This document shows, piece after piece, positions 8,111-41,960 of a DNA stretch of 64,000 nucleotides (the stretch's first letter is position 1; each line of letters begins with the position of its first letter). The stretch lies in contig JBEPZY010000001.1 in assembly GCA_041640595.1 (NCBI GenBank), positions 288,001 through 352,000 on the forward strand, in the 5' to 3' direction. A program made the position numbers and the translations under genes. This DNA comes from Gemmatales bacterium. Its GTDB lineage: Bacteria; Planctomycetota; Planctomycetia; Gemmatales; HRBIN36. The notes under the pieces are model-generated. The model had not been told where the DNA came from. It saw only the letters and a list, made by a program, of their open reading frames with translations, and searched no databases.

Positions 8111-8301
8111 ATATCTCTCGTTCCCGACCGAGTCCGCGATTTTGCTCGTCTGCCAACCGCTCTCCAAAAGCATACGCAGCCACCTCGGCACAGCCCAGCC
8201 GCCCCGCATCCAACCGTAATCGAACCGAGGTGCATGTTAGACTGGCTTGCCGATGTGCAAAACCAGCACCTGTCTGACACACGTTATGGTGCTTGCGGGG
8301 C

Positions 8302-8512: not shown

Positions 8513-8978
8513 GCCCTGTCGAAAACACGGCTGGCTCTGGGCGAAAACTAGCGGCGAACGGCGTGGGCCAGTAACCACAGAGCCGCTTCATTGCCCAATC
8601 GCCACTTCCGCCGCGCCCTCAATTGCAGGTGACAAGGCATTGCCTGGCTGGGCCCAATCTCGTTGAGCGCCGGGCCGCAACTGGAACCGAGTGAACTGGC
8701 CGGGCTTTTCGGCTGCGAAGACGGGGGCAACACCTGCTGGGCTAATTCCAGGCCCATCCTGGTTACAGCTTAGAGCAAATGCGTCCTTGCGTCCGAAGCA
8801 ATTTTCTCCGCATCCGATTGCATCATGGTTACAGCCAAGAGCAAATGGGTTCCTTCCATGGCCGAGCATCGTAGCTCATCCCGCTTCGTGGTGGTTCCAT
8901 CAGAAGCTGTCGTGGTCGTGTCCCACGACCGAGCATCCTAAATCCTCTCGCCCGGCGCGAAGCTCTTTTCGACAGAGC
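8513..8978 (-). mobile_element. Internally deleted IS (MITE-like), copy A of the DDE (IS5/IS4-like) element also at 33255 and 40697
   Basis: Ends GCCCTGTCGAAAACA / TCTTTTCGACAGAGC; reverse complement matches both ends of 40697-41960; keeps only transposase N- and C-terminal bits (LELAQQVLPP, NEAAL). Confidence 0.85.
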
Positions 8979-19555: not shown

Positions 19556-20041
19556 GATAAGTCAGAACTGGAGCCTTCAGGTAATCGCGGACGGGGTAGG
19601 GAACGCCGATAATGCGGATTTAGAGTCTGGGATAAGTCAGAACTGGGCCATCAGGCAATCGCGGACGCGGTGGGGAACGCCGATAGTGCGGATTTAGAGT
19701 CTGAGATAAGTCAGAACAGGGGCCTTCAGGTAATCGCGGGCGGGGTAGGGAACGCCGGTAGTGCGGATTTAGAGTCTGAGATAAGTCAGAACTGGGGCCT
19801 TCAGGTAATCGCGGACGCGGTGGGGAACGCCGATAGTGCGGATTTAGAGTCTGGGATAAGTCAGAACTGGGGCCATCAGGCAATCGCGGACGGGGTAGGG
19901 AACGCCGATAGTGCGGATTTGGAGTCTGAGATAAGTCAGAACTGGGGCCTTCAGGTAATCGCGGACGGGGTAGGGAACGCCGATAGTGCGGATTTAGAGT
20001 CTGAGAGAAGTCAGAACTGGGGCCTTCAGGTAATCGCGGAC
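19556..20041. repeat. 75-bp tandem repeat, ~6.5 copies
   Basis: Units GATAAGTCAGAACTGGGG... start at 19556, 19631, 19705, 19780, 19855, 19930, 20005. Confidence 0.95.
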
Positions 20042-33254: not shown

Positions 33255-33926
33255 TAGCCTGGAGGCCCCGGGAGGATACATCGCGTACAGCCAGGACTCG
33301 CAATCGGCATGTCCACGTGCTTGGGCAGGTGCACAGAGTGCGGTGGAATGACGCAAGTGCAAGTCGCAATCTGCTGGCCAAAGCGTTGGCTCAGGTATTT
33401 CCGCAGCCGTTGGTGGCCGATGCGGGCTATGATGCGGAGTGGGTGCACGAGTTTTGTCGGGAGCGATGGCGGGTGAACAGTTGGATACCGCTGGCGGTGC
33501 ATAGTGGGGATGGTCAGGTGCGAGGCCGCTGGCGTTCCCGAATGAGGGAGATGCCGAAGGTGTACCGTCAGCGTTGGCACGTGGAATCGTTCCTAAGTGG
33601 GCTGAACCGAACCACTGGATCGCAATTGACACGCTGTGTCCGATACGGCAAAGTCGGACGACGAAGGGCTGAACCGAACCACTAGATCGCAATTGACGGC
33701 GTGGCGGTAAAGTTAAGCCTGGCAACCAGGCGCTATACTGTCAGCCACAGTCGAGGACGTAGCGAGACAAGACGTTGAACAATGAAGCGGCTCTGCGCCA
33801 CAACCGACACTACGACGACGTCGAGCACCACGAGAAGACGTTGAACAATGAAGCGGCTCTGCGGGTGGTGGCTTACGCCATTCGCTGTTAGTTTGCGCCC
33901 ACACGCGACCATGTTTTCGGCAGAGC
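33255..33926 (+). mobile_element. IS remnant, copy C (3' part) of the DDE element
   Basis: LVADAGYD, YRQRWHVESF; right end TGTTTTCGGCAGAGC at 33912-33926; left boundary approximate. Confidence 0.8.
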
Positions 33927-34222
33927 AAAATAGGTTCTAGCAAATGGAAATGCTTGCTCACTATCCAGAGATTTGGTCAACCGGAAAGACACCCCTACTG
34001 GCCTGGCCGACCAATTCTCTCCGGCGAATCCAAGAACAGGTTTAGTGCGGTACTTTTATGTCGGCGGCATGCTGAAAAATTTTGGCACCTTTTGCCAGCA
34101 GCCTTCGGTTAATTAGGTAGAGGCGGACGTGAGCCGGCCAGCGTTCGCAACGGTGCAAGCGAATCAACAACCCAACCGCCAAACCAATTCACAACCCAAC
34201 CACCAACAGAGGAGGACGAACC

Positions 34223-39325: not shown

Positions 39326-39650
39326 CCACGGTGGGCTGACGCCCACCGCTCCTGGTTGTGTGTTCGCCAGTTGCCGAACAGCCCTTGATTTTCACCGCGC
39401 CGGGACGGTTTCACACACCACGGTGGGCTGACGCCCGCCGCTCCTGGTTGTGTGTTCGCCAGTCGCCGAACGGCCCTTGATTTTCACCGCGCCGGGACGG
39501 TTTCACACACCACGGTGGGTTGACGCCCGCCGCTCCTGGTTGTGTGTTCGCCAGTCGCCGAACGGCCCTTGATTTTCACCGCGCCGGGACGGTTTCACAC
39601 ACCACGGTGGGCTGACGCCCACCGCTCCTGGTTGTGTGTTCGCCAGTCGC
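39326..39650. repeat. 92-bp tandem repeat x3.5 with REP-like hairpin
   Basis: Units at 39326, 39418, 39510, 39602; GGTGGGC-TGAC-GCCCRCC palindrome. Confidence 0.92.
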
Positions 39651-40696: not shown

Positions 40697-41960
40697 GCTC
40701 TGTCGAAAACATCTTGGCGCGTGGGGCAGGAAGAGTTGGGATGCTCGGTCGTCGGACACGACCACGACAGCTCCCGATGGAACCGCCACGAAGTGGGATT
40801 AGCTACGATGCTCGGTCATAGATGGACCAATCATTGTCGGTCTTTGTTGCAACGGGTCCTCCTGCCCCTTTCGGGGGCACCCAGTCATGGAAGGACCAAT
40901 CATTGTCGGTCTTTGCTGTAACGTCCACACTCATTAGCTAAAATGCTCACCATGGAAGGAACCCATTTGCTCTTGGCTGTAACCAGGATACAACCGGATG
41001 CGGAGAAAATTGCGTCGGACGCAATGACGCATTTGCTCTAAGCTGTAACCAGGATCTAGCTTGATAGCTTCATACGGATCCTTGACTTCCGGCGACGCAT
41101 TTGCTCTAGGCTGTAACTAGGATACACCGCGTCCCTGGCGTGTGATTGTCGAAATGACAAGACGCATTTGCTCTAAGCTGTAATTAGGATGGCCCTGGAA
41201 TTAGCCCAGCAGGTGTTGCCCCCGTATTCGCACCCCAAAAGCCCACACCAATTCACCCAGCCGCAGTTGCTGGCCTGCTTGATTGTGAAAGCCTACCTGC
41301 GACAGAGCTATCGGGGCATCGTCGAACTGTTGGCCCTGTCGGATGGTCTGCGGCGGGTGCGTCCGCAGCCGTTGGTGGCCGACGCGGGCTATGGTGCGGA
41401 ATGCGTGCACGAGTTTTGTCGAGAGCGGTGGCGGGTGAACAGTTGGATACCGTGGCAGCGTCTGGACGGAAAGGGTAAGTGCAATCACCGCCTGCGGCTT
41501 CGGCCAACCAGGCACCCCGCTGGCAGTGTCTGGTCGGAATGGCCAAGTGCAATCACACCGTTGGAGGGCGTGGTCAATGACCCATGTTCCGAGCTGGCAG
41601 CGTCTGACCGAAAAGGGCAAGTGCGAGGCCGCTGGCGTTCCCAGATGGGAGATGCCCAAGGTGTACCGTCAGCGTTGGCACGTGGAATCGTTCCTAAGTG
41701 AGCTGAAGCGAACCACCGGCTCGCAATTGACGGCGCGGCGGTAATGTTAAGCTTGGCAACCAGGCGCTACACTGTCAGCCACAGTTGGGGGCGCGGCGGG
41801 GAAAAAACTGTAGGAGGATGGTCATGTGCAGCGCCGGTGCTATACTGTCAGCCACAGCTGAGGAGGTGGCGGGAGTGGACGTTGAACAATGAAGTGGCAT
41901 TGCGGGTGGCGGCCTACGCCGTTAGTTTGCGCCCACACGCAACTATGTTTTCGACAGAGC
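40697..41960 (+). mobile_element. Decayed IS, copy B, with both terminal inverted repeats
   Basis: Perfect 15-bp IR GCTCTGTCGAAAACA / TGTTTTCGACAGAGC; YSHPKSPHQFTQPQLLACL, ADAGY, QRWHVES; central deletion and several inserts. Confidence 0.88.
40815..41190. CRISPR. CRISPR-like repeat-spacer array at the transposase start of IS copy B
   Basis: 30-bp GACGCATTTGCTCTAAGCTGTAACCAGGAT-type repeats at 40960, 41026, 41094, 41161 (spacers 36, 38, 37 bp) plus a 39-bp pair at 40815/40884. Confidence 0.65.

Follow-up and report, generated by a model that had tools for sequence, protein, structure and literature searches.

The stretch of DNA that we analysed, hereafter called the window, is 64,000 nucleotides long and corresponds to positions 288001–352000 of contig C1 of the genome (G000). 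The sites described in the present paper lie in the 3′ part of an IS4/IS5-type insertion sequence, which we refer to as IS copy C (window positions 33297–33929, plus strand) and which has paralogs on contigs C1, C2, C3 and C8. Copy C is degenerate, retaining only a remnant transposase open reading frame of 122 amino acids (33317–33685, plus strand), which a profile search places in the DDE_Tnp_1 family (PF01609; E = 5.8e-5, 23.4 bits with a cut-off of 23) and whose final codons extend into the first of the two inserts described below. The conserved end of the element, ...TTTTCGGCAGAGCAAA, stops at about position 33929. BLAST searches located at least 12 fragments of the 3′ region of this IS family on contigs C1, C2, C3 and C8, and a MAFFT alignment of eight copies showed that the end ...TTTTCGACAGAGCA is common to most of them; a DDE transposase domain and multiple paralogs with a common end are what identify the host as an element of the IS4/IS5 type. 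In addition, a fragment of DUF4096 (IS4/5 family) is found upstream of another copy in the window, IS copy B.

Two units of the same anatomy are present in copy C, both of which are given here on the plus strand. At site 1, a 30-bp target, GCTGAACCGAACCACTGGATCGCAATTGAC, which is IS sequence coding ...GLNRTTGSQLT, occupies positions 33601–33630 and is followed by a spacer-like insert of 37 bp (33631–33667) and by a second arm (33668–33697) that is identical with the first at 29 of 30 positions, the exception being a single G>A change. At site 2, near the 3′ end of the element, the 29-bp target AAGACGTTGAACAATGAAGCGGCTCTGCG (33769–33797) is likewise followed by a 37-bp spacer-like insert (33798–33834) and by a second arm (33835–33863), which in this case is identical with the first. 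A repeat-pair scan gave a period of 67, an arm length of L32 and an arm identity of 0.97 for site 1, where two more G residues match on the left side, such that the divisions 30+37, 31+36 and 32+35 are all compatible with the sequence. For site 2 the same scan gave a period of 66, L29 and an identity of 1.00, and the bases adjoining the 29-mer differ at either end. The inserts of the two sites are unrelated to each other. An earlier, sequence-only reading of this DNA had described repeats, 29/30 matching and identical respectively, around 37-bp inserts at 33601/33668 and 33769/33835, and our re-reading of the sequence bears out this description.

The targets of both sites occur only once each in copy B, at 41702–41731 (site 1) and 41876–41904 (site 2), both on the plus strand, which is where the earlier reading had placed them (approximately 41702 and 41877). 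Among the eight aligned copies, the site 1 target was single in all six of the other copies that cover it and the site 2 target in six of seven, the seventh being the copy at C8:39095, which has different inserts of its own there. The claim that both sites are filled in copy C and empty in copy B was therefore upheld, and it extends to the other covering paralogs. Also upheld was the proposal that insertion had duplicated approximately 30 bp of target, as the arms measure 30 and 29 bp, far above the target duplications of IS elements, which are typically much shorter than this.

The filled state was also found in other data. A contig from another public run (X2) spans 33570–33861 with no differences, contigs from X3 cover 33573–33714 with no differences and 33768–33883 with one, and another assembly record (L016) matches at 100% identity across 837 bp. 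As the X2 and X3 contigs and L016 carry the units independently, the filled state is not an artefact of assembly. The runs containing the stretch are mostly labelled as hot-spring or microbial-mat metagenomes. One X2 contig skips 33618–33684 (67 bp; side 60), at a depth of 51 compared with 63 for the filled contig, and may represent either an empty allele of site 1 or a paralog, the latter because it was placed at 90% likeness and because two X2 loose ends at 33751 resemble the B-type paralog. Joints with sides under 30, namely a 291-bp skip in X2 and a 124-bp skip in X4, were disregarded.

The genome has only two cas1 genes and two kinds of CRISPR array. The type I-B arrays (C8:2–21080 and C10:65236–66999) have a 30-bp repeat and spacers with lengths of 35 (n = 36), 36 (165), 37 (108), 38 (26), 39 (5) and 40 bp (1), such that 37-bp spacers account for 108 of the 341 in the C8 and C10 arrays. 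The C8 array is neighboured by cas8-like, cas7 (Cst2/DevR), cas5, cas3, cas4, cas1b and cas2 genes, followed by a Cmr (III-B) operon. Both I-B adaptation genes, cas1 and cas2, are intact in the genome that carries the scars: Cas1b is encoded by a 458-amino-acid open frame on C8 and reaches 425.5 bits, where the cut-off is 304.1, and the cas2 frame (C8:22207–22422) is stop-free. In the I-B leader region, approximately 330 bp from the first repeat, a segment of 32 bp is also flanked by a perfectly duplicated 34-bp sequence (C8:21408–21507; period 66). The second kind of array (C1:359749–377934) has a 37-bp repeat and spacers of 33–40 bp (mode 37), and adjoins cas2, a stand-alone group-II-like RT (reverse transcriptase) and cas1; this RT-linked adaptation module is located at C1:356–359 kb, 7 kb past the window. 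The dimensions of the window sites, 30+37 and 29+37, match the I-B geometry of a 30-bp repeat and 35–40-bp spacers.

Given this match of a 30-bp repeat and 35–40-bp spacers, which implicates the I-B integrase rather than an IS or other mobile element, both sites are very probably off-target Cas1–Cas2 integrations by the type I-B adaptation machinery of this genome (Cas4, Cas1b and Cas2 on C8). Catalysis of these two events by Cas1b–Cas2 is suggested by their dimensions, the empty sites, the resident machinery and the genome-wide pattern described below. In such an event, Cas1b–Cas2 carrying a prespacer of 35–38 bp would attack ordinary DNA on both strands at points 29–30 bp apart, this spacing being the distance that the architecture of the complex would normally measure across a CRISPR repeat. 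Gap repair would then copy the 29–30 bp between the attack points to give the order target–insert–target. The landing place would have been in a defunct element of the IS4/IS5 type, at its 3′ end, and insertions there would presumably cost nothing. The duplication at site 2 is 29 bp, compared with the 30 bp of the I-B repeat. Neither site is a bona fide CRISPR array: each has just two arms, both derived from the IS, the leaders of the arrays show no similarity to the IS copies and the target of site 2 is unlike the I-B repeat.

The same dimensions recur throughout the genome. We took a census of direct-repeat pairs that were isolated, at least 20 bp long, not in tandem and located outside the arrays, at every offset from 36 to 130 bp. 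Each offset from 36 to 64 held 0–3 pairs, whereas offsets 65–69 held 11, 40, 22, 11 and 5 (89 in all), and this piling up excludes a chance origin of the sites. Offsets 72–76 held a further 13, 24, 19, 22 and 8 pairs (86 in all). With a looser criterion (30-bp window) the two classes contained 191 and 175 pairs, a total of 366. Duplication lengths cluster at up to approximately 31–32 bp in the first class, in which 8 of 89 pairs are longer, and at up to approximately 38 bp in the second, in which 7 of 86 are longer; the second class (periods 72–76) matches the RT-linked system with its 37-bp repeat. These data show that the genome is littered with units sized like those of its two CRISPR systems and of nothing else. 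The scars are overdispersed (mean 3.0 and variance 16.4 per 50 kb), but the densest bin (C2:150–200 kb, 19 scars) adjoins no CRISPR locus, and a comparison of ORF spans with and without units gave no clear in-frame excess. A third peak, at offsets 87–94, is due to a hairpin (REP-like) element that is unrelated to the CRISPR-sized units. This GC-rich hairpin, AAGAGCGGCGGGCGTCAGCCCGCCGTGG, and its variants are found at window positions 39326–39650 and genome-wide in pairs 87–93 bp apart, with about 220 pairs at periods 87–94 (30-bp-window threshold) and partly conserved intervening sequence; it resembles a family of REP or MITE type and has no apparent relation to CRISPR.

The presence of two size classes bears on the question of which integrase was involved. 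The RT-linked Cas1–Cas2 on C1, rather than the I-B enzyme, might have made these real off-target integrations, given that its module is much the nearer to the window and that its spacer mode of 37 likewise fits the inserts. However, the repeat of that system is 37 bp, and scars with duplications of 36–38 bp form a peak of their own with periods of 72–76, whereas the window sites have duplications of 29–30 bp and periods of 66–67; we therefore consider the RT-linked system to be a very unlikely source.

Neither window insert has a second copy elsewhere in the genome. When searched by blastn against 50,697 phage records, the site 1 insert gave a best E value of 6 and the site 2 insert one of 0.1, both at chance level. 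Exact 37-mers of the two inserts gave 0 matches each in viral_contigs, and in metagenome_contigs the site 1 37-mer had a single match, its own locus in L016 at 100% identity. No protospacer of either insert was found in the genome, the phage records or viral_contigs, nor of the site 1 insert in metagenome_contigs, so that these searches point to no foreign source and no PAM for the window inserts.

Other ectopic inserts in the genome do have links to real adaptation. Of the inserts from the strict scan, 26 of 175 have non-self matches in the genome, mostly to paralogous or tandem copies. The insert at C2:174386 overlaps the array spacer at C8:12371, from which it is offset by 2 nt and differs by two mismatches, and is an independent capture from the protospacer region of that spacer. 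An insert present at both C2:407699 and C3:561426 has a match of 30 nt (93%) to contig C15, which is 9,585 bp long (L005), has a GC content of 0.50 and receives 34 matches from 33 I-B array spacers (32 in a stricter search), most of which lie towards the leader in the C8 array. NGG is found 3′ of 26 of these 34 array-spacer matches; the ectopic insert has no NGG after its own match in either orientation. C15 probably represents a phage or plasmid now present in the population and binned together with the genome. In addition, the 30-bp-class insert at C3:484583 corresponds to 34 nt of the genome's own 23S rRNA gene (C5:166631–166664, with an Rfam LSU match) and is antisense as read on C3. The GC content of the ectopic inserts in the 30-bp class is 0.548, compared with 0.551 for real I-B spacers and 0.576 for the genome.

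These properties of the inserts also bear on whether a small mobile element or a non-Cas1 integrase, inserting approximately 37 bp and duplicating 30 bp of its target, could have produced the two units, a view implicit in the earlier sequence-only reading, which named no agent. The anatomy is formally that of an insert with a target duplication, and the agent of these two events is one that we infer; conserved ends and many copies would nevertheless be expected of an element, whereas the two inserts show no relationship and each occurs just once in the genome. Furthermore, each of the two size classes corresponds to one of the CRISPR systems of this genome, and two ectopic inserts are tied to a real spacer or to a spacer-targeted contig. 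We regard the chance that such an element was responsible as very small. Insertion of an IS or MITE was rejected in the same way, as the inserts do not recur and have no conserved termini in the genome.

With the two units removed, the 3′ part of copy C has 75.6–91.5% identity with its paralogs, the closest of which is at 91.5%. The arms of both duplications taken together differ at 1 of 59 positions, compared with a divergence of 8.5% from this closest paralog, indicating that the duplications are much younger than the IS copies. A query of 901 bp from the region found neither an orthologous empty locus nor the IS DNA in any of 40 related genomes, three of the same genus included. The polarity might still be the opposite one, with the filled state ancestral to the IS family and the unit lost from the other copies by precise recombination between the arms. 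Recombination between 30-bp direct repeats would exactly restore the empty sequence, and as just one copy is filled, the shape of a tree cannot by itself polarize the change. Arms of that age should, however, have diverged as copy C has from its paralogs (8.5–24%): approximately five differences would be expected at 8.5%, and the Poisson probability of at most one in 59 bp then lies between the values computed for 7% (0.08) and 12% (0.007). An ancestral filled state would also require the loss of both sites in every other lineage, and would leave the match with the dimensions of the I-B array as an unexplained coincidence, for which reasons we find it scarcely credible.

Tandem duplication of a 66–67-bp unit by replication slippage, with a middle that then diverged or was replaced, has practically no chance of being correct and is refuted by the sequence, since, common though head-to-tail repeats are in the window, the unrelated 37-bp middles are unlike the sequence after the second arm or before the first, the arms around them are 97–100% identical and the true tandem arrays found here keep the whole unit. 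One such array, at window positions 19556–20041, has a 75-bp unit that is kept whole in 6.5 copies with 92% matches; despite a period within the 72–76 class, it was rejected as a repeat–spacer structure because it is a true tandem repeat.

For the preferred reading, off-target integration by the I-B machinery, we also examined how the targets might be chosen. Site 1 starts with G, finishes with C and shares CGAACCAC and ATTGA-C with the I-B repeat, a resemblance that 0.64% of 5000 random 30-mers score as high as; for site 2, 68% of random 30-mers score as high. Over all events, the similarity of target to repeat is weak (p = 0.03–0.06). The 5′ bases of the duplicated targets are G at 21 of 42 ends (p = 0.003). 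The enriched 5-mers AACCA (p = 7e-4) and ACCAC (p = 9.5e-6) did not clearly survive correction or repeat content, and neither array's leader showed similarity to the IS copies, with best E values of 0.12–0.5. Taken together, site 2, the weak overall similarity, the lack of a robust motif and the leader mismatch argue against a simple model of repeat mimicry.

The choice of the IS end itself does recur. The 3′ ends of the IS copies, 7,027 bp in total, contain 20 of the 366 scars, compared with 0.6 expected, although not all 20 are independent because some are inherited or amplified copies. The C15-like insert occupies the 29-bp target of window site 2 in the same register, but the IS copy that holds it belongs to another, related lineage and the inserted sequence differs; one site was thus hit independently in two lineages.

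The process that we propose is already known. Non-canonical integration by the type I-E Cas1–Cas2 of Escherichia coli produces ‘neo-CRISPR’ units (Nivala, Shipman and Church 2018, Nat Microbiol 3:310, as presented in the accessible text of 10.1101/148544 and PMC6698737), and in the accessible text of 10.1101/148544 these events required over-expressed Cas1–Cas2, natural cases being called circumstantial in two species. The window sites resemble those units, as far as the latter are described there, in having a spacer-sized insert and a repeat-length duplication of ordinary genomic DNA outside an array. Unlike the over-expression events, the scars described here are fixed in a wild hot-spring population, and unlike the I-E case the putative integrase is of type I-B with a 30-bp ruler, the two sites being part of several hundred scars in one genome. 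In vitro, the Cas1–Cas2 of Pyrococcus furiosus, in which the repeat is 30 bp and the spacer 37 bp, makes paired attacks 30–31 bp apart at non-CRISPR plasmid sites, with G preferred at the attacked base and with off-target sites that are partly repeat-like (accessible portions of PMC6698737). The dimensions, the preference for G and the repeat-likeness of site 1 agree with this portion of that work. In contrast with that archaeal plasmid assay, ours are repaired and inherited chromosomal scars in a bacterium, and unlike the off-target sites reported there, window site 2 has no detectable resemblance to the repeat.

Compared with canonical leader-proximal acquisition of type I-B, the presumed enzyme, the spacer length and the duplication length are the same, but there is no leader and no prior CRISPR repeat, the ‘repeat’ being IS sequence with one spacer per unit. 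As after insertion of an IS or MITE, the target is duplicated directly around the insert and paralogs with an empty site exist; unlike such elements, the window inserts have no shared ends, inverted repeats or other copies. The ‘ectopic’ acquisition described in Streptococcus thermophilus (accessible text of PMC7999890) likewise places a spacer away from the leader-proximal repeat, but those events stay within the array and between genuine repeats, which the window sites do not; the literature on ‘ectopic acquisition’, in its accessible portions, concerns positions within arrays. Full-text searches did not turn up any account of natural off-target integration that is fixed and genome-wide. What is new is the natural sites, the IS family as a recurrent target and the scars from two integrases in one genome. 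In the accessible papers, documentation comes from over-expression in E. coli and from assays in vitro, with natural occurrence called circumstantial (10.1101/148544, accessible text). Both window sites are clean and dated natural products, in that their arms are almost identical, their paralogs are empty and a resident system matches them. The scars constitute a data set on the errors of Cas1–Cas2, comprising G at the attacked base, a fixed ruler of 29–30 bp and an occasional resemblance to the repeat, and they bear on the mutational cost of CRISPR adaptation and on how new arrays might start. They also carry a warning for annotation, in that repeat–insert–repeat units within IS copies are not features of the IS.

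It is possible, although doubtful, that the IS 3′ end is a preferred landing pad for both integrases, the resulting neo-repeats being reused for more spacers and carried along by copying of the IS. This suggestion is based on the independent hits on one 29-bp target and register in two IS lineages, on the excess of scars in 7 kb of IS 3′ ends, on a mini-array at window positions 40960–41190 that shares its first spacer with a copy at window position 8755, and on a 37-bp-class mini-array of approximately nine repeats in an IS copy on C8, at a distance of 2 kb from the cmr genes. If correct, it would provide a natural route for the birth and mobilization of arrays with new repeat sequences.

Further units were observed in the IS copies of the window. 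The mini-array at 40960–41190, in copy B, has four repeats of the 30-bp IS-derived sequence GACGCATTTGCTCTAAGCTGTAACCAGGAT with periods of 66, 68 and 67, and its first insert is common to a two-repeat unit in another IS fragment (8755–8850, minus strand). As this first insert is shared, it seems that two more spacers were added to the GACGCATTTGCTCTAAGCTGTAACCAGGAT neo-repeat in copy B. The same copy contains a three-repeat unit with IS-derived repeats of approximately 37 bp and two inserts (41453–41640), which is common to the C8:39095 copy, where amplification has brought it to approximately nine repeats with two alternating inserts, and a 37-bp duplication around 36 bp (41763–41873; period 73), which is common to C3:418810. 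Both of these units belong to the other size class and both are empty in copy C. At C8:39095–40250, some copies of one of the alternating inserts start with CAATCCCACCGT, a 12-mer that is found identically within the 30-bp I-B repeat. Finally, units with periods of 66–75 bp and with 24/30 to 32/37 matches are found at window positions 8299, 19018, 20543, 20676, 32840, 33044 and 40815, and these seven are candidates for older or weaker examples of both size classes.
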